DNA of 64,000 nt. Source: Syntrophales bacterium. Its GTDB lineage: Bacteria > Desulfobacterota > Syntrophia > Syntrophales > UBA2210. Both the position numbers and the translations under genes were made by a program. Position 1 is the first letter of the stretch; every line of letters begins with the position of its first letter. Below, one piece after another: positions 18,125-26,415 of the stretch. A model generated the notes under the pieces. The model did not search any database. It was not told the origin of the DNA and saw nothing but the letters and a program-made list of their open reading frames with translations. The stretch spans positions 1,184,001 through 1,248,000 of the forward strand of contig CAXXNF010000001.1 of the NCBI GenBank assembly GCA_963666365.2, read 5' to 3'.

Positions 18125-18826
18125 TTGAAGGACATTGAGAAACTGGTGCTTGGCGAAGCGGCGGAACGGATGGTTCCTGCGGGGGACGCCGGCGATAGGG
18201 GAGTGCTCATTCATCCCGATGTGCTGGATGCCTTTCAGCTCCTGCGCAGTGATGCGGGAAAAGAGGGATTCGATCTCAGAATCCATTCAGGGTTCCGGTC
18301 GTTTGACGGGCAGCTCACCATCTGGAACCGGAAAGTCCGTGGAGAACTGGCGGTTCTCGATGATCATTCAAAAAAGATACCTGTCGACACCGTACACAAA
18401 AAGGATTTACTGTTTTACATTCTGCGCTGGTCGGCATTGCCGGGTGCAAGCAGGCACCACTGGGGGACGGAAATCGACTACTACGAATTTAACGGGTGCG
18501 CGGCCGGCAGAAAAATCGATCTTATTCCCGAAGAATATCGAGACAGCGGGCCCTGTGCACGAGCCGACCGCTGGCTCAATTCCTGCATTGCCGAAAAAAA
18601 GGCGCACTCCTTTTTCAAACCCTATGCCCGTGACAGGGGAGGAGTGCACCCCGAACCGTGGCATCTGAGCTGGGCGCCTCTGGCCGACCACTGTCAGAAC
18701 GCACTGAAGGCCGATCTTCTCCTTGCAAAACTGCAGGCCTCTCCCATTCTGCTGAAAGAGTTCATTGTCGACGCCTATCCTGAAATATGGAACAGGTTCG
18801 TCATCAATGTGGAAAGTTCCGGATGA
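18125..18826 (+). CDS. M15-family (VanY-like) Zn D,D-carboxypeptidase
   Basis: SGFRSF..Q, WSALPGASRHHWGTEID (SxH...D), EPWH. Confidence 0.88.
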   Translation: MKDIEKLVLGEAAERMVPAGDAGDRGVLIHPDVLDAFQLLRSDAGKEGFDLRIHSGFRSFDGQLTIWNRKVRGELAVLDDHSKKIPVDTVHKKDLLFYILRWSALPGASRHHWGTEIDYYEFNGCAAGRKIDLIPEEYRDSGPCARADRWLNSCIAEKKAHSFFKPYARDRGGVHPEPWHLSWAPLADHCQNALKADLLLAKLQASPILLKEFIVDAYPEIWNRFVINVESSG

Positions 18827-20848: not shown

Positions 20849-20877
20849 TTGACAGACCTGCGGCAATCCCATATATT
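20849..20877 (+). promoter_or_regulatory. Putative sigma70 promoter for the MinD-like operon
   Basis: TTGACA(20849)-17 nt-TATATT(20872), 50 nt upstream of ATG 20928. Confidence 0.6.
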
Positions 20878-20927: not shown

Positions 20928-21686
20928 ATGGCCAAAATCACCGCAATTCATTCGTTTCGCGGCGGCACGGGAAAATCGAACACCACCGCCAATATCGCCG
21001 CACTGATTGCCGCACAAGGCATGCGGGTAGGCGTGGTGGATACGGATATCCAGTCCCCCGGCATCCACGTACTGTTTCGCTTCGATCCGAACCGGGCAAC
21101 CTATTCCCTGAACGACTATCTCTGGGGGAAGTGTGATATTATCCATACGGCCCATGACGTAACGTCGCTGGTGGACAGCCGCATGGAGGGGAAAATTTAT
21201 CTTATACCCTCCAGTGTAAAAACAGGCGATATCGCGCGGGTTCTGCATTACGGCTACGACGTGAATCTGCTGCGAGAGGGCTTTCTGAAACTGATCGACG
21301 CGCTGGCCCTCGACTATCTTTTTATCGATACGCACCCGGGACTGAATGAGGAAACACTTCTGTCGATCGCGCTTTCCGATACCATGATTATCATTCTCAG
21401 ACCGGATCAACAGGATTATCAGGGAACGGCGGTAACCGTCGAAATATCGAGACAGCTCGATCTTCCCCGGATTTTCCTTGTGCTCAACAAGGTTCCCCCT
21501 GCCTGGAGCAGGCAGACCTTGGCTGCAAAGGCCGCTGAAACCTACGGCTGCGAGGTGGCGGGCGTGCTTCCTCACAGCGATGACATGATGACACTGGCAA
21601 GCGCGGGGATATTCATAACAAAGTACAGGGATCACACGCTTACGCGGGAATTTGAGGCCATCGCCCGCAAAATAGGAGAGGCATAA
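20928..21686 (+). CDS. MinD/ParA-family P-loop ATPase (orphan; RGGTGKS variant)
   Basis: IHSFRGGTGKS, VVDTD..SPG, YLFIDTHPGL, LVLNK; no amphipathic C-terminal membrane-targeting helix evident. Confidence 0.9.
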   Translation: MAKITAIHSFRGGTGKSNTTANIAALIAAQGMRVGVVDTDIQSPGIHVLFRFDPNRATYSLNDYLWGKCDIIHTAHDVTSLVDSRMEGKIYLIPSSVKTGDIARVLHYGYDVNLLREGFLKLIDALALDYLFIDTHPGLNEETLLSIALSDTMIIILRPDQQDYQGTAVTVEISRQLDLPRIFLVLNKVPPAWSRQTLAAKAAETYGCEVAGVLPHSDDMMTLASAGIFITKYRDHTLTREFEAIARKIGEA

Positions 21687-21770
21687 CGACATCGGGAAGT
21701 AAATCCGCCGTCATTACAGGACGGCGGCACCGTTCCGGAACGCACAGATTTGTGAAAAACGTGACATACT

Positions 21771-22832
21771 ATGATTACACCGGCAACACTCATCGGGTTC
21801 AATAATGACAACTCCCGCAAAACCCTGTTCGCGGCGGGTCTCACCTGGGCCTGCCTGTATGGTTTCCTGAACCTCCTGTCAAACACGTTCGTCCTTCCCG
21901 CCGCTCCGGTTATTGCCCTGCGACCTCAGATTGCCATTCCCATGACCGTAGGAATTATTTTCGGCCCTGCGGCGGGGTTTCTGACCGGCTGCCTGGGGAA
22001 CATACTGGGGGACGCGCTTTCCGGATACGGAATTATGACCTTCTGGAACTGGCATATCGCCAACGGTCTTATGGGATTTGTACCCGGCCTCATCCGTTAT
22101 CTCAAAGTACAGGACATTTGCACCGTCTGGGATTTTGCGATACTGCAGATTGCCGTCGTCGGCGCCAGCGCCTTTGCCGTGGGCGCCGCCGTAGTGCTGG
22201 ATATATGCTGTATTCACGTGATGAAGTTTCCCGAGTCGGTAAATTCGTGGATACTTCCTGCGTTCATTACCGATGCCGTCAACGGATTCGTGCTGGTCCC
22301 GCTCCTGCTTCTCGCACTGCGACGGGTCGTCGTCACGCTGGAAATCCGCACAATCCTCATGGTAAGCTTCCTGCTGGTAGCAGCCATACTGAGCACATCG
22401 ATGGCCATTACCTGGTCCGTGTGGGATATACTGATTTCAAAGGCTGCCATGATCGATACGTTTTACTTCGCCGGCATCCTTTCGGTAGTGCTGCTCAGTG
22501 CCGGATTTACCGCGGCGGTGTTCTTTGTGCGGCGCATTACCCTGCCCATCAAGGGACTCACCCGGACAGCGCAATCGGTGGAAAAGGGGAACTATGACAC
22601 GGAGCCGCTTGATTCCCTTTCTCAACGCTCCGACGAACTGGGACATCTGTCGAAGGTGTTTCAGCATATGATCGAAGAAGTACACGGCCGGGAGGAAAAA
22701 TTGCAGCGCCAGGTTGAAGAGCTGCAGATCGAAATAGACAGGAAGCAGCAGGCCCGGGATGTTGCGGAAATCGTGGATTCCGATTATTTCCAGCACCTGC
22801 GAAAGAAGGTAAAAGAATTCAGAAAACCCTGA
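21771..22832 (+). CDS. Membrane protein: ECF S-component-like domain + 2 TM + HAMP + short coiled-coil tail (no enzymatic output domain)
   Basis: LRP..AIP...GIIFGP.AGFLTG.LGN.LGD.LSGYG...WNW.IANG.MG (S-component); ITLPIK.L...A..V..GNY...DELG.L...F..M (HAMP); tail LQIEIDRKQQARDVAEIVDSDYFQHL. Confidence 0.8.
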   Translation: MITPATLIGFNNDNSRKTLFAAGLTWACLYGFLNLLSNTFVLPAAPVIALRPQIAIPMTVGIIFGPAAGFLTGCLGNILGDALSGYGIMTFWNWHIANGLMGFVPGLIRYLKVQDICTVWDFAILQIAVVGASAFAVGAAVVLDICCIHVMKFPESVNSWILPAFITDAVNGFVLVPLLLLALRRVVVTLEIRTILMVSFLLVAAILSTSMAITWSVWDILISKAAMIDTFYFAGILSVVLLSAGFTAAVFFVRRITLPIKGLTRTAQSVEKGNYDTEPLDSLSQRSDELGHLSKVFQHMIEEVHGREEKLQRQVEELQIEIDRKQQARDVAEIVDSDYFQHLRKKVKEFRKP

Positions 22833-22848: not shown

Positions 22849-23805
22849 ATGAGAGCAGTCCTATTTGACGGCGCCCTTCGCTATGAACCTGACCATCCGA
22901 CGCCATCGGCGCCACCGGGATGGGCACTGATCCAGGTCAGAACGGCGGGCATCTGTAAAACGGACATGGAACTGACAAAGGGGTACATGGGATTCAAGGG
23001 TATCCTGGGGCACGAATTTATCGGCACGGTTGCACAGTGCGACGACCCGCAGTGGATCGGAAAATCGGTGGTGGGAGAGATCAACGCCGCCTGCGGCTCC
23101 TGTGAATGGTGCGCCCGCGGACTGGGGCGCCACTGCCCCCATAGACGCACACTGGGGATCGACCGCCTTGACGGATGCATGGCCGATTACTGTATACTGC
23201 CGGTGGCCAATCTTCTCGAAATTCCGTCCGAGCTCTCCGAAAACCGCGCGATATTGACGGAACCGCTTTCCGCTGCCTGCGAAATCCTGGAGCAACTGCC
23301 ACTGAGCGGCACGGAACGGGCGGTGGTGCTCGGAGACGGACGCCTCGGCATTCTCTGCGCCTGGGTGCTGGCCACGATGCTTTCCGATGTCGCCATTATC
23401 GGACATCACCCGGAAAAACTCGCCCTGGCGGCCTGGCGTCATATACAACAGGCATCTTCCCCCGATGAAATTGCCGGGAATGTCGATATCATCGTCGAAG
23501 CCACCGGTTCGGGACAGGGCATTGTGGAGGCGATGGCCTTGTGCCGTCCGCGGGGAACGATTGTGCTGAAATCAACGGTCGCTCTTCAGGGCGACGTCAA
23601 TCTCGCGCCGATAGTCATCAACGAACTGACGGTGCTCGGCTCCCGTTGCGGACAGTTCAAGGATGGGCTGCAGGTGCTGGCTGACTACCCGGATATGCCG
23701 GTGGAGCGGCTCATCACCGCACGATATCCCATCGAAGAAGTCGAAAGGGCCTTCACTCGGGCCACCGAGCGTGACGCTCTGAAGGTGCTGCTGGATCTTA
23801 CATAG
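22849..23805 (+). CDS. Zn-dependent medium-chain dehydrogenase/reductase (threonine dehydrogenase-like)
   Basis: AGICKTD, LGHEF.G, CGSCEWC..G...HC, EPL, VLGDGRLG, VEATG, GSRCG. Confidence 0.92.
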   Translation: MRAVLFDGALRYEPDHPTPSAPPGWALIQVRTAGICKTDMELTKGYMGFKGILGHEFIGTVAQCDDPQWIGKSVVGEINAACGSCEWCARGLGRHCPHRRTLGIDRLDGCMADYCILPVANLLEIPSELSENRAILTEPLSAACEILEQLPLSGTERAVVLGDGRLGILCAWVLATMLSDVAIIGHHPEKLALAAWRHIQQASSPDEIAGNVDIIVEATGSGQGIVEAMALCRPRGTIVLKSTVALQGDVNLAPIVINELTVLGSRCGQFKDGLQVLADYPDMPVERLITARYPIEEVERAFTRATERDALKVLLDLT

Positions 23806-23829: not shown

Positions 23830-26415
23830 ATGACGGCTATGGCAGGCAATGTGGGCGACCTCCTGCAAAAACTGATTCGGGAAGAGCGGCAGGGTGAAAA
23901 GACGCTGTCGGGGACTTTCTCCGCTCCGGGACATCTTACCACCCTGGGCGCACCGCTCATCCCGGTGGCGGAAGGACGCTACAGGATAGATATTACGGGA
24001 ATACGGGTATTGAGAAACCTTTCGACCTTTATTCACCTGCTGACCGGCGAGGTGCTCGAGCAGTGCGGCTTCGGCGTCACCGATATCATGGTAAAAAGAA
24101 AAGTGGATGCCCATCTGACTCCGGAACTCTCGGAGGCCGGAGTAGATTGGGTGATGGTCTACGCCAGACTCGACGCCGCAGAGCATCTGCCGCGTTATCA
24201 CAATTCATTCAACCGGGACATGCAGCTCATCTTCAGCATGCTCCAGACCGTCCGATGGGGCGGACTTCTTTTCCCGGATTTCTTCAATCTCGATGCCGGC
24301 GCGAAAGACGCCCCTCTCCCGGCCCTCCTTTTTCCTTTTCACCTGGATATCGCCGACAGGGAAGAAAGCCATTACATGCTTCTGGAGTTCAACCGTCCGG
24401 GACGGTTTCTTCGTGTGACAATCGAGGATGCCCCATCGTCACGATTGCAGTTGAAGCATATTTCTCACCGGGTCGTCGACAATATACATCGTGCGGCCTA
24501 TCTCCCCCCCGATATGCACCATATTGCCGGACAGATTCACCAGGGCATTCTGAGAGAATGCTTCAACAATCGGACCGAATACAAGGAAACGCCGGATCGG
24601 CAATCGGCGCTCTTTGACCACCTTCGACAGGGGGGGTTGGACAGGCTGGGATCACTCTATTTTCGATGGACCATCGAAGATATTCAACCGCTTATTCTCA
24701 GGGAAAATGAGGGCCCATCCCTCAATGAAGCGCAGGCGCTTCTGCACAAAGAACTCATGCTCCTCCAGGACCCGGATGTGCGTTTCCAGTTGCACGAGGG
24801 ACACATCATCGAAATGCAGGCCGATCAGTATCGTGTCTTTTTCTCCCTCTCCCGTCGTCACACCTGTCTCAACATCAGCCTGAGCGAAGAACCCCATTTC
24901 ACTACCCTGAACGATTATTTCGAGAAAATGCCCCTCCTGAAAGAGGCAGCCGTCCAGCGGGAAGGATCACTTCATGGTGTGCGTCTTTTTCTGATTCATC
25001 ATATTACGGCGGAGGTGCTCGGGCTTATCAGGGCCTTTCAAAAAGCCGGATGTGAGTTCATCACCACCCTGTTTGTAAAATACGCCGGCGTCGTACCCGA
25101 CGAGTACTTTGAAACAATCCTTTCCCTCCCCGACGATTCCTTTCGGTTCTGTGGAATTCACAGGATAGAAACGCCGCGCACCATGGAAAGCCGTTATGTG
25201 ATATCACAGCAGTATTCCGATATTTCAGACCTGCAGTTCCTCGACACAATACTGTGGGAGGAACGACGCGATTTCAAGGATGCCATGCGTCTGGTAGCGG
25301 GTCATCTCTTCTTTGAAGAGGCGATTCGCTGTAGAAAAGCGGGAATCACCCTTCTACTGGTGGAGGACGGCGGATATCTGTCGCCTCTGATCAACAGATT
25401 CTGCCTGGAACAAAAGACGCTGGGCGACGTGCTGCGCGCTTTTCACGTTGATGCCGCCGCCGAGGGGAATCCCGATCTTGCATTGCCGGAAGAAGACTGT
25501 GAGGCGCCCGTGGCGGAGTGGCTGGCTGAAATATTTGCAGGCACTGTCGAACACACAAAAAACGGTCACGACGAGAACGCAGAGGTAATGCATGAATACG
25601 GAACACTTCGCTTTCCTCTTGCGAGCATTGCCGTATCCCGTCTCAAACGGGGCCCGGAGGCAAAGGAGTGTGCGATTGCCATACTCAACGCCGTCGAAAA
25701 CATCCTGCACCGTCAGGGATTGCTCCTGTCTCGGCGGCGGGCCCTGGTGATCGGTTCATCAGGCGCAATCGGACGGCGCCTTATAGATGAGCTCTCCCAT
25801 CGCCTGATCGAAGCACCTCCCGCCGGCGTCGACATCGCCGCATCAGACATCGCTACAACGCACCTGGAAGTCAGGACCCTTGAAGAACTTGACAGAAGTA
25901 TCCTTTATGGCATCGATATGATAATCGGCGCCGCCGGCAGGTCCGTGATGACGGCAACGACACTTGCGGATATGCTGATAGAGGGCGCGCAAGAATTCCT
26001 CTATTTTGTGAGCGGTTCGACGAAAACGGTGGAATTCACCGAAGTGGAAACGTGGCTTCACTCGCTGATGGCGCAAAAAAATCCCCGCATTGCAGGTCAT
26101 CATATCGAGATCGCCCACGCACCGCTGCGGGACCTGCAGACATCGGCACTTCTGGGACATGAGGTACGGATCGCATTTTCCGACGGCGCCATCCCGCCCA
26201 AACGGCTCTACCTTCTGGGCGAACTGACGCCCATTAATTTCCTCTACTACGGAATCCCCAGAGAGATTCTCGATGACGTCATGCGCCATCTCTTCCGGGT
26301 ATCCGTCGGGTTGATAGAAAGAAAAAAAGCGGGGGAACCGCTTCCCCGCCGGCTCCTCGCCGTCGATCACGACATCGATATGGATGCACGGCGGATCGAC
26401 GCCCCGTTCTCTTGA
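23830..26415 (+). CDS. 861-aa protein: unknown N-terminal ~375 aa + divergent S-adenosylhomocysteine hydrolase (AdoHcyase)-like NAD-binding fold
   Basis: Motifs in AdoHcyase order: IHHITAE, VEDGGY, VEHTKNG, SRLK...E, ALVIGSSGAIG, GVD, IGAAG, LLGELTPINF. Confidence 0.6.
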   Translation: MTAMAGNVGDLLQKLIREERQGEKTLSGTFSAPGHLTTLGAPLIPVAEGRYRIDITGIRVLRNLSTFIHLLTGEVLEQCGFGVTDIMVKRKVDAHLTPELSEAGVDWVMVYARLDAAEHLPRYHNSFNRDMQLIFSMLQTVRWGGLLFPDFFNLDAGAKDAPLPALLFPFHLDIADREESHYMLLEFNRPGRFLRVTIEDAPSSRLQLKHISHRVVDNIHRAAYLPPDMHHIAGQIHQGILRECFNNRTEYKETPDRQSALFDHLRQGGLDRLGSLYFRWTIEDIQPLILRENEGPSLNEAQALLHKELMLLQDPDVRFQLHEGHIIEMQADQYRVFFSLSRRHTCLNISLSEEPHFTTLNDYFEKMPLLKEAAVQREGSLHGVRLFLIHHITAEVLGLIRAFQKAGCEFITTLFVKYAGVVPDEYFETILSLPDDSFRFCGIHRIETPRTMESRYVISQQYSDISDLQFLDTILWEERRDFKDAMRLVAGHLFFEEAIRCRKAGITLLLVEDGGYLSPLINRFCLEQKTLGDVLRAFHVDAAAEGNPDLALPEEDCEAPVAEWLAEIFAGTVEHTKNGHDENAEVMHEYGTLRFPLASIAVSRLKRGPEAKECAIAILNAVENILHRQGLLLSRRRALVIGSSGAIGRRLIDELSHRLIEAPPAGVDIAASDIATTHLEVRTLEELDRSILYGIDMIIGAAGRSVMTATTLADMLIEGAQEFLYFVSGSTKTVEFTEVETWLHSLMAQKNPRIAGHHIEIAHAPLRDLQTSALLGHEVRIAFSDGAIPPKRLYLLGELTPINFLYYGIPREILDDVMRHLFRVSVGLIERKKAGEPLPRRLLAVDHDIDMDARRIDAPFS

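Follow-up and report, generated by a model that had tools for sequence, protein, structure and literature searches.

A MinD/ParA-superfamily ATPase and a membrane sensor, encoded by two neighbouring genes of a Syntrophales bacterium, probably form one instance of a widespread and so far unnamed signalling module. The genes lie in the assembly GCA_963666365.2 (contig CAXXNF010000001.1, positions 1,184,001 to 1,248,000 of the forward strand); this whole stretch of 64,000 nucleotides is hereafter called the window. The sensor ends in a tail of 48 residues, and comparisons of sequences and genomes suggest, with a fair degree of probability, that this tail is a portable output module which docks on and switches a cognate ATPase of a clade with the unusual P-loop RGGTGKS. 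The tail is conserved, stands behind many kinds of input domain, co-occurs with the ATPase clade, adjoins its genes, is fused to the ATPase in other organisms and is paired by subtype with ATPase paralogues. A preliminary description of the two genes had proposed an orphan MinD-like ATPase next to a HAMP receptor whose tail is itself the output domain. Our data support the tail as an output domain coupled to the ATPase, which it would bind and whose activity it would affect.

A conserved tail behind diverse input domains

The tail profile was built from an alignment of 21 tails (A1), in which R2, E3, L13, D18, I29, Y34, F35 and R46 are invariant and the two terminal helices share the motif V.EI...DYF..L..K...R. 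No model in Pfam or NCBIfam covers the tail; NCBIfam returned no family and Pfam just sub-threshold matches to coiled-coil families. In the genome of the window, which is 94% complete and to which all genome-wide negatives below refer, the profile matched this sensor with an E-value (E) of 1.1e-24 and no other protein. The match spans profile positions 2-47, stops one residue short of the sensor C-terminus and is not due to chance. A search of 1.84 billion representative proteins returned 2298 matches at E<=1e-3, of which 1017 reach E<=1e-10, carried by proteins with database names such as ‘CHASE2 domain-containing protein’.

The tail is a terminal element. Among the 150 best matches the median number of residues behind the last tail element was 7, with at most 40 in 147 of them, and all 88 tails of the 79 loci described below ended within 36 residues of the C-terminus. 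Relatives of the sensor itself, obtained by searching 5.8 billion proteins, numbered 111. A HAMP domain is present in 99 of these (about 340 residues in length), and every one of the 99 terminates in the tail, which was recognised by its motif in 96 cases and by eye in three, one of the three being cut by a contig end. The remaining 12 relatives lack both HAMP and tail and are simple ECF-S-like proteins. Since all HAMP-bearing homologues terminate in the tail, the receptor is not a truncation, in agreement with the preliminary description.

Pfam analysis of 86 tail-profile matches of at least 150 residues revealed which domains precede the tail. HAMP was the most frequent (51 of 86), followed by Cache (16), GAF (11), receiver domains (about 10, several with HisKA), cyclic-nucleotide (cNMP)-binding domains (3) and CHASE2 (2), with nSTAND1, CheR_N and ECF-S found once each; no Pfam domain was recognised in 9. 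A kinase, cyclase, GGDEF or methyl-accepting chemotaxis protein (MCP) output domain was found in none of the 86. Together with the short distance to the C-terminus, this bears out the expectation that homologues do not continue into a conventional output domain, and the spread of inputs ahead of the tail is what a modular output domain, put forward in the preliminary description, should have. The carriers include small soluble proteins with a single domain in addition to the tail, of 200-257 residues for the cNMP-tail form and 223 for the receiver-tail form. Moreover, several proteins carry tandem repeats of the tail's second half (..DYF..LQ.KA..LR), with two copies in P0112 and P0169, three in P0113 behind nSTAND1 and about seven in P0239 behind CHASE2, which suggests a multivalent, self-contained docking motif.

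Association of the tail with the ATPase clade

Tail loci were collected by scanning one genome per species with the 8 closer tails as query. The 79 loci recovered came mostly from Chloroflexota, with some from Cyanobacteria and from metagenome-assembled genomes (MAGs) of Desulfobacterota type and a few from Actinomycetota. An ATPase of the clade was encoded within 6 kb of the tail in 52 of them, and in 38 it was directly adjacent on the same strand, after the tail gene in 23 loci, before it in 12 and as overlapping open reading frames (ORFs) in 3. Nearly all ATPases of these loci read SFRGGTGKSN in the P-loop. The earlier statement that similar tails occur beside this MinD subtype in Cyanobacteria and Chloroflexota was thereby substantiated. 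In the window the ATPase and sensor genes lie on the same strand with 84 bp between them.

Co-occurrence was determined in 753 genomes of three phyla, of which 68 carried both tail and ATPase, 3 the tail only, 3 the ATPase only and 679 neither. In the phylum of the window (301 genomes, ATPase threshold E<=1e-40) both were found in 4 genomes and neither partner was found alone; the two genes are adjacent in all 4 carriers, which represent 3 genera. The corresponding numbers for both, tail only and ATPase only were 32, 2 and 0 among 251 Chloroflexota and 32, 1 (a weak match) and 3 (one of them weak) among 201 Cyanobacteria. No P value is given for these counts because related genomes are not independent. 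Adjacency and co-occurrence, both anticipated for the RGGTGKS-type ATPase, were thus found. MAG incompleteness may explain some of the genomes in which one partner is found alone. Two Chloroflexota genomes, G301 (the genome of locus L008, with two tails) and G390, carry tails and no clade ATPase at E<=1e-25, and these are either incomplete MAGs or real exceptions to the pairing.

Overall, the pair is rare in the phylum of the window (4 of 301 genomes) and common in the two other phyla sampled (32-34 of 251 Chloroflexota, 33-35 of 201 Cyanobacteria). Horizontal acquisition of the pair would fit this pattern together with the high identity of the ATPases across phyla (53-65%). To clade members from three phyla, the window ATPase is 53-70% identical.

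Tail and ATPase are also joined naturally. Among 115 ATPase homologues of at least 442 residues, 93 contain the tail followed by the ATPase in one chain according to profile matches, preceded by a cNMP-binding domain (about 505 residues in total), dCache (about 760), HisKA-receiver (about 720) or PAS (about 507). Such sensor-tail-ATPase fusions further support the tail as an output domain. Candidate fusions in loci L027, L031, L037, L040 and L045 were ruled out, their overlapping ORFs being adjacent genes in different frames. Other partners fused to the ATPase are glutaminase (P0431), a PrsW intramembrane protease (P0446, P0460), a Ser/Thr kinase with FHA (P0433) and a winged-helix domain; near the module, genes for PrsW (cluster 14) and for adenylate-cyclase/STAND proteins (cluster 6) recur.

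Furthermore, eight Chloroflexota loci encode two ATPase paralogues, and in all eight a distinct tail subtype is encoded directly upstream of the second paralogue, with a winged-helix gene downstream. Mean identity was 68% among tails of this second subtype versus 38% between the two subtypes, and 75% among the second ATPases versus 55% between the two paralogues. The eight genomes are probably related, so the loci do not count as eight independent events and most probably reflect one or a few old duplications that were kept. For the predicted complex of two ATPase and two tail chains with ATP and Mg, the scores were 0.66-0.72, and one control with an unrelated partner scored 0.64, a result that speaks neither for nor against binding.

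The same data bear on whether the tail could be a generic dimerisation helix of the S-helix type that has no specific partner and stands near the ATPase by coincidence or through shared ancestry of a genomic island. Such a coiled coil would agree with the weak Pfam matches mentioned above and with the structural model, in which the first third of the tail continues the last HAMP helix straight. We nevertheless consider it very improbable, given that the invariant columns D18, Y34-F35 and R46 do not follow a heptad pattern, that co-occurrence with the ATPase is near-perfect in three phyla and both gene orders occur, that fusions have recurred with different sensor types and that the tail subtype is matched to the ATPase paralogue.

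The ATPase

Pfam matches above the cut-offs (PF10609 ParA, 62.3 bits; PF13614 AAA_31, 58.9 bits; PF01656 CbiA, 54.5 bits) and the catalytic residues place the ATPase in the ParA/MinD (SIMIBI) superfamily of P-loop ATPases. Its Walker A motif reads SFRGGTGKSN, and HMMER alignment with solved chains of MinD and Cfd1 pairs the arginine with their signature lysine, as the preliminary description had read it. The substitution is a property of the clade: in an alignment of 46 clade sequences (A3), R11 is conserved in at least 90%, with a single histidine exception seen in locus L009, and G13, T14, G15 and K16 are invariant. The catalytic set is retained as well (K16 and D38 invariant; S17, D40 and D134 in at least 90%), so a working ATPase is predicted. 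Little sequence follows the core fold, and conservation in A3 is lost over the last ten or so columns, so that a conserved amphipathic helix at the C-terminus is not evident.

By motif, equivalog score and partners the ATPase is not a MinD, a ParA or a member of the Mrp/NBP35 group. Its scores lie far below the equivalog cut-offs for MinD (TIGR01968, 55.9 vs 212.9 bits; archaeal TIGR01969, 66.3 vs 201.75), ParA (NF041546, 48 vs 180 bits), ApbC (36 vs 348) and MrpORP (53 vs 450). The Fe-S carrier ATPases Mrp, NBP35 and ApbC are defined by a cluster-binding CxxC motif, which is not present in the 46 clade sequences, where C69 is the sole conserved cysteine. MinC (PF03775) and MinE (PF03776) were not found in the whole genome, while the same models were positive in 6 and 4 of 14 named genomes used as controls. 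The single ParB of the genome is encoded outside the window at C1:1310887, beside its own ParA at C1:1311325. The absence of minC, minE and parB, first reported for the window, therefore holds there, and for MinC and MinE it extends to the assembly. Even the nearest relatives with a solved structure, Cfd1, MinD, FleN and Soj, are distant (E 6e-10 or weaker), and the FleN chains 5j1j and 8pb9 among them match at E of about 1e-7 to 1e-6. At least 7999 protein clusters are related to the ATPase at E<=1e-40, and the database name for them is just ‘MinD/ParA family protein’.

A further ATPase paralogue with the P-loop FRRGTGK[ST], in which the first glycine is replaced, was observed beside tail genes at L023:6994-7758, L071:6183-6935 and L011:8274-8894, and may by its sequence be a non-catalytic relative. 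Still odder P-loops occur in the ATPase paralogues of L057 and L078.

The membrane sensor

The AlphaFold2 model of the sensor (mean predicted local distance difference test score, pLDDT, 82.9) has eight long helices ahead of HAMP. The second HAMP helix (AS2) runs unbroken into the tail as part of a continuous helix of residues 289-321, followed by two short helices at 324-335 and 338-351. Behind HAMP the protein consists of residues 306-353 only, the very string quoted in the preliminary description as its short tail. Pfam and NCBIfam matched no output domain in this part, and HisKA/HATPase, MCPsignal, GGDEF and cyclase domains were all absent behind HAMP.

The membrane part contains an ECF-S-like domain (PF07155) that did not figure in the earlier description, and this domain opens the possibility that the receptor is an ordinary S component of an ECF transporter with a regulatory appendage, the neighbouring ATPase being unrelated to it. 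The PF07155 score and the name ‘ECF transporter S component’ of some homologue records would agree with such a role. Against it, a search of the genome (94% complete) gave no EcfT/CbiQ (PF02361), the sensor holds the single PF07155 domain of the genome, and the riboflavin-S-component equivalog of NCBIfam scored 50 against a cut-off of 99; the same tail, moreover, stands behind many unrelated sensor domains, and the link to the ATPase holds genome-wide. This makes the transporter the least probable of the explanations that we considered. Because the genome lacks a detectable EcfT and has no other PF07155 protein, the ECF-S-like part does not serve as a subunit of a transporter in this organism and is likely a ligand-sensing input.

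The winged-helix partner and the local operon

In 30 of the 79 loci the ATPase gene is followed by a gene for a conserved IclR/MarR-like winged-helix protein, which is the third member of the module in most lineages, frequent though not universal. The protein occurs in two forms, a small one (about 105-130 residues) whose N-terminal helix is conserved and a long one (700-990 residues) in which it is joined to a membrane domain resembling amino-acid permeases. A hidden Markov model (HMM) of 16 proteins of the small form gave no convincing match in the window genome, where the best E was 0.0036, and none in the 10 loci whose sensor is of the ECF-S type. The view of an orphan ATPase paired with a receptor, taken in the preliminary description, is thus too narrow for most lineages, although no third member of this kind was found in the window genome. 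Long forms with an Aa_trans/Trp_Tyr_perm domain were observed at L021:1171-3333, L027:6967-9183, L040:1295-4219 and L017:2475-5438, and in L017, L040 and L058 the winged helix is found at about residue 600. Given the membrane tethering, the winged helix of the long form may bind the ATPase rather than DNA.

The lineage of the window has a different arrangement. In all 10 loci with an ECF-S-type sensor, found in MAGs labelled Desulfobacteraceae, Syntrophaceae, Smithella or similar, the gene order is ATPase, sensor, Zn-dehydrogenase (cluster 7) and a protein of about 850 residues (cluster 8). The window shares this order, with gaps of 17 bp between the sensor and dehydrogenase genes and 25 bp between the dehydrogenase gene and that of the last protein, which has 861 residues. 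The latter matched nothing in Pfam or NCBIfam, and a sequence search of the PDB gave nothing below E 0.25. Its model (pLDDT 75.8) was more informative: the C-terminal 500 or so residues adopt a predicted two-Rossmann fold that matches chains of S-adenosylhomocysteine hydrolase (SAHH) in a Foldseek search of the PDB (E 2e-13), and the N-terminal part of about 350 residues is without a match. The idea that the N-terminal helix of this protein is an ATPase-binding peptide like that of the winged-helix partner was dropped, an HMM of 21 such peptides having missed the 861-residue ORF among its 859 weak matches.

The window therefore represents a local variant of the module in a genome of Desulfobacterota type: the input is ECF-S-like, the winged-helix partner was not found, and the operon with the dehydrogenase and SAHH-fold genes is conserved. 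In this lineage, the closest candidates for what the module regulates are the genes for the Zn-dehydrogenase and the SAHH-fold protein. A membrane sensor whose ligand resembles a vitamin or a nucleoside would accordingly control the dehydrogenase/SAHH-fold operon in this organism.

Proposed mechanism and relation to known systems

HAMP domains pass signals to an output domain, and MinE and ParB peptides shift the ATP-dependent cycles of MinD and ParA. In the module of the window, binding of a ligand to the ECF-S-like membrane domain would change the conformation of HAMP, and the continuous helix 289-321 would relay this change to the two short terminal helices with the V.EI...DYF..L..K...R motif. 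Where the signalling helix coming out of HAMP ends, other receptors have a kinase, cyclase or MCP domain; here the tail takes that position. Docking of the terminal helices would then shift the ATPase in its ATP-dependent cycle between monomer and dimer, in the way that MinE acts on MinD and ParB N-termini act on ParA. The ATPase would in turn act on an effector, which may be the neighbouring small winged-helix protein in most lineages and another effector in the lineage of the window.

Among characterised systems the module would, by analogy, work most like the MinD-MinE or ParA-ParB pairs. With these, and with ParF-ParG and McdA-McdB, it shares the ATPase superfamily, the size and the intact P-loop, switch Asp and Walker B. 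As in these systems, the ATPase is linked in the genome to a short conserved helical element of another protein, and in most lineages of the module a small gene of DNA-binding type lies beside the ATPase. The differences are the arginine in place of the signature lysine, the lack of MinC, MinE and an adjacent ParB, the scores below the equivalog cut-offs, and the location of the partner element, here the C-terminus of a sensor behind classical input domains and sometimes fused to the ATPase. The comparison with FleN (FlhG) and FleQ concerns the output side, where in both cases a switch formed by an ATPase dimer would act on a DNA-binding protein, represented in other lineages of the module by the winged-helix partner. 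FleN, however, keeps the signature lysine and receives no input from a sensor tail, and FleQ is an AAA+ enhancer-binding protein instead of a winged-helix protein of about 110 residues, for which the window genome, moreover, offered no match. On the input side, the AS2 helix continues unbroken into the next element and the input domains are the same as in histidine kinases, cyclases and MCPs, whereas that next element is a 48-residue terminus with an invariant motif of its own instead of an enzyme or an MCP bundle. Sensors that act on small P-loop NTPases instead of a kinase cascade are known from conservons (Cvn) and MglA/MglB; the sensor-to-NTPase logic is alike, but those systems use Ras-like GTPases and roadblock partners, whereas here a tail would couple the sensor to a dimerising ATPase of the SIMIBI class.

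The main rival to the switch that we propose is positioning: the ParA-like ATPase would place or space the sensors, with the tail as a cargo tag and the winged-helix protein as a ParB/ParG-like adaptor. ATPases of the ParA/MinD superfamily, to which this one belongs, do position chemoreceptor arrays, and in PpfA-TlpT of Rhodobacter and ParC-ParP of Vibrio a ParA-like ATPase is coupled to receptors through a short region of the receptor or adaptor. The module resembles these systems in coupling an ATPase of this type to receptor proteins, as judged here from the genes. Likewise, the small winged-helix gene with its conserved N-terminal helix, encoded after the ATPase in most lineages, recalls type-Ib partition pairs, and several different tail proteins per genome share one or two ATPases. 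On the other hand, PpfA-TlpT and ParC-ParP position large MCP/CheA/CheW arrays, whereas the tail carriers have diverse inputs and no MCP domain and are often small and soluble; such one-domain proteins are unlikely cargo in need of spacing. A mere tag would also not have to sit, as it always does, at the output-domain position behind signal-transmitting modules (HAMP, GAF, receiver, cNMP, PAS), the 93 sensor-tail-ATPase fusions fit regulation in cis better than transport of cargo, and the supposed adaptor was not found in the window genome. We therefore regard positioning as unlikely, though more deserving of attention than the other alternatives.

The linkage data do not fix the direction in which information flows, so the ATPase might instead act on the sensors, as an assembly or quality-control factor or as their regulator, with the tail as its recognition handle. 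Get3, FlhG and BcsQ, which serve in insertion and assembly, do belong to the SIMIBI class of ATPases. Nevertheless, the carriers comprise membrane and soluble proteins that have only the tail in common, and a shared need for assembly is hard to see among them. The sensors would also still lack an output of their own, and the tail stands at the output end of the signalling helix. We consider this reversal quite improbable.

Several observations weigh against the tail as a switch of the ATPase. No clade ATPase lay within 6 kb of the tail in 27 of the 79 loci, 12 of which are cut by a contig end, and in many cyanobacteria the tail and ATPase genes are far apart. Within the phylum of the window only 3 genera carry the pair, six of the 753 genomes have one partner alone (3 the tail, 3 the ATPase), and kinship among the genomes makes the co-occurrence counts overstate the statistics. 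Binding of the tail to the ATPase is inferred from sequence and genomic linkage. ParA/MinD ATPases, moreover, usually position cargo and do not relay signals, and the missing winged-helix partner leaves the downstream step in this organism without a candidate of that type.

We judge the chances evenly balanced that the tail and the ATPase define a further class of prokaryotic signal transduction, in which thousands of sensors transmit via a docking tail of about 45 residues and a dimerising MinD/ParA-type ATPase with a ‘signature’ arginine receives the signal and passes it to winged-helix proteins or enzymes. The window would then show its minimal two-gene form, built on an ECF-S-like domain and a dehydrogenase/SAHH-fold operon, and the class would stand alongside two-component, chemotaxis, cyclic-nucleotide and partner-switching systems. 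Sensors without an output, in which nothing follows a HAMP, GAF, receiver or cNMP-binding domain, are a long-standing puzzle of annotation, and at least 2298 protein clusters gain a testable partner. If the proposal is true, the very large and strongly conserved group of at least 7999 clusters named for MinD/ParA gains a role outside cell division and DNA partition, and a compact sensor-to-switch module becomes available for engineering. With two or three proteins and an interaction element of 48 residues, the module is small enough to bring assays and structures within easy reach. Full-text literature searches, with limited coverage of subscription journals, gave no account of the tail, of the ATPase clade or of how the two are paired, nor does one stand in the passages of PMC9953108 that deal with ParA/MinD.

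Genomic surroundings

The features of the locus are compiled in the table below.

Table 1. Genes, domains and motifs of the sensor-ATPase locus, with positions counted from the first nucleotide of the window.
Feature	Position	Strand	Basis and remarks
Sigma-70-like promoter match, TTGACA-17 nt-TATATT, 11/12	20849..20877	+	Consensus match; lies in the gap of 175 bp before the ATPase gene
MinD/ParA-superfamily ATPase, 252 residues	20928..21686	+	ORF; distinct clade, Arg at the signature-lysine position
Deviant Walker A SFRGGTGKS, ATPase residues 9-17	20952..20978	+	Translation; aligned to MinD and Cfd1 P-loops
Membrane sensor, 353 residues (ECF-S-like domain, two further membrane helices, HAMP, tail)	21771..22832	+	ORF, Pfam, AlphaFold2
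ECF-transporter S-component-like domain, sensor residues 37-184	21879..22322	+	PF07155, 65.4 bits, cut-off 26.7
HAMP domain, sensor residues 251-305	22521..22685	+	PF00672, 35.5 bits, cut-off 25
C-terminal tail of 48 residues, sensor residues 306-353	22686..22829	+	Alignment A1, profile matches, model
Zn-dependent alcohol-dehydrogenase-family gene	22849..23805	+	17 bp 3' of the sensor gene
861-residue protein, C-terminal SAHH-like fold predicted	23830..26415	+	Foldseek; no Pfam/NCBIfam match

The promoter-type match ahead of the ATPase gene is a possible start of the operon by its consensus only, and such matches were as frequent in the scanned region as in shuffled sequences (4 observed, 4.0 expected). 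No chemotaxis genes were found in the operon according to the ORF list and Pfam analysis of the window. Upstream, between positions 18125 and 20752, lie three genes on the same (+) strand. They encode two carboxypeptidases, one a D-Ala-D-Ala carboxypeptidase of VanY type and the other M14/AstE-like, and a membrane protein in which Pfam matched two ‘Gate’ nucleoside-recognition domains.

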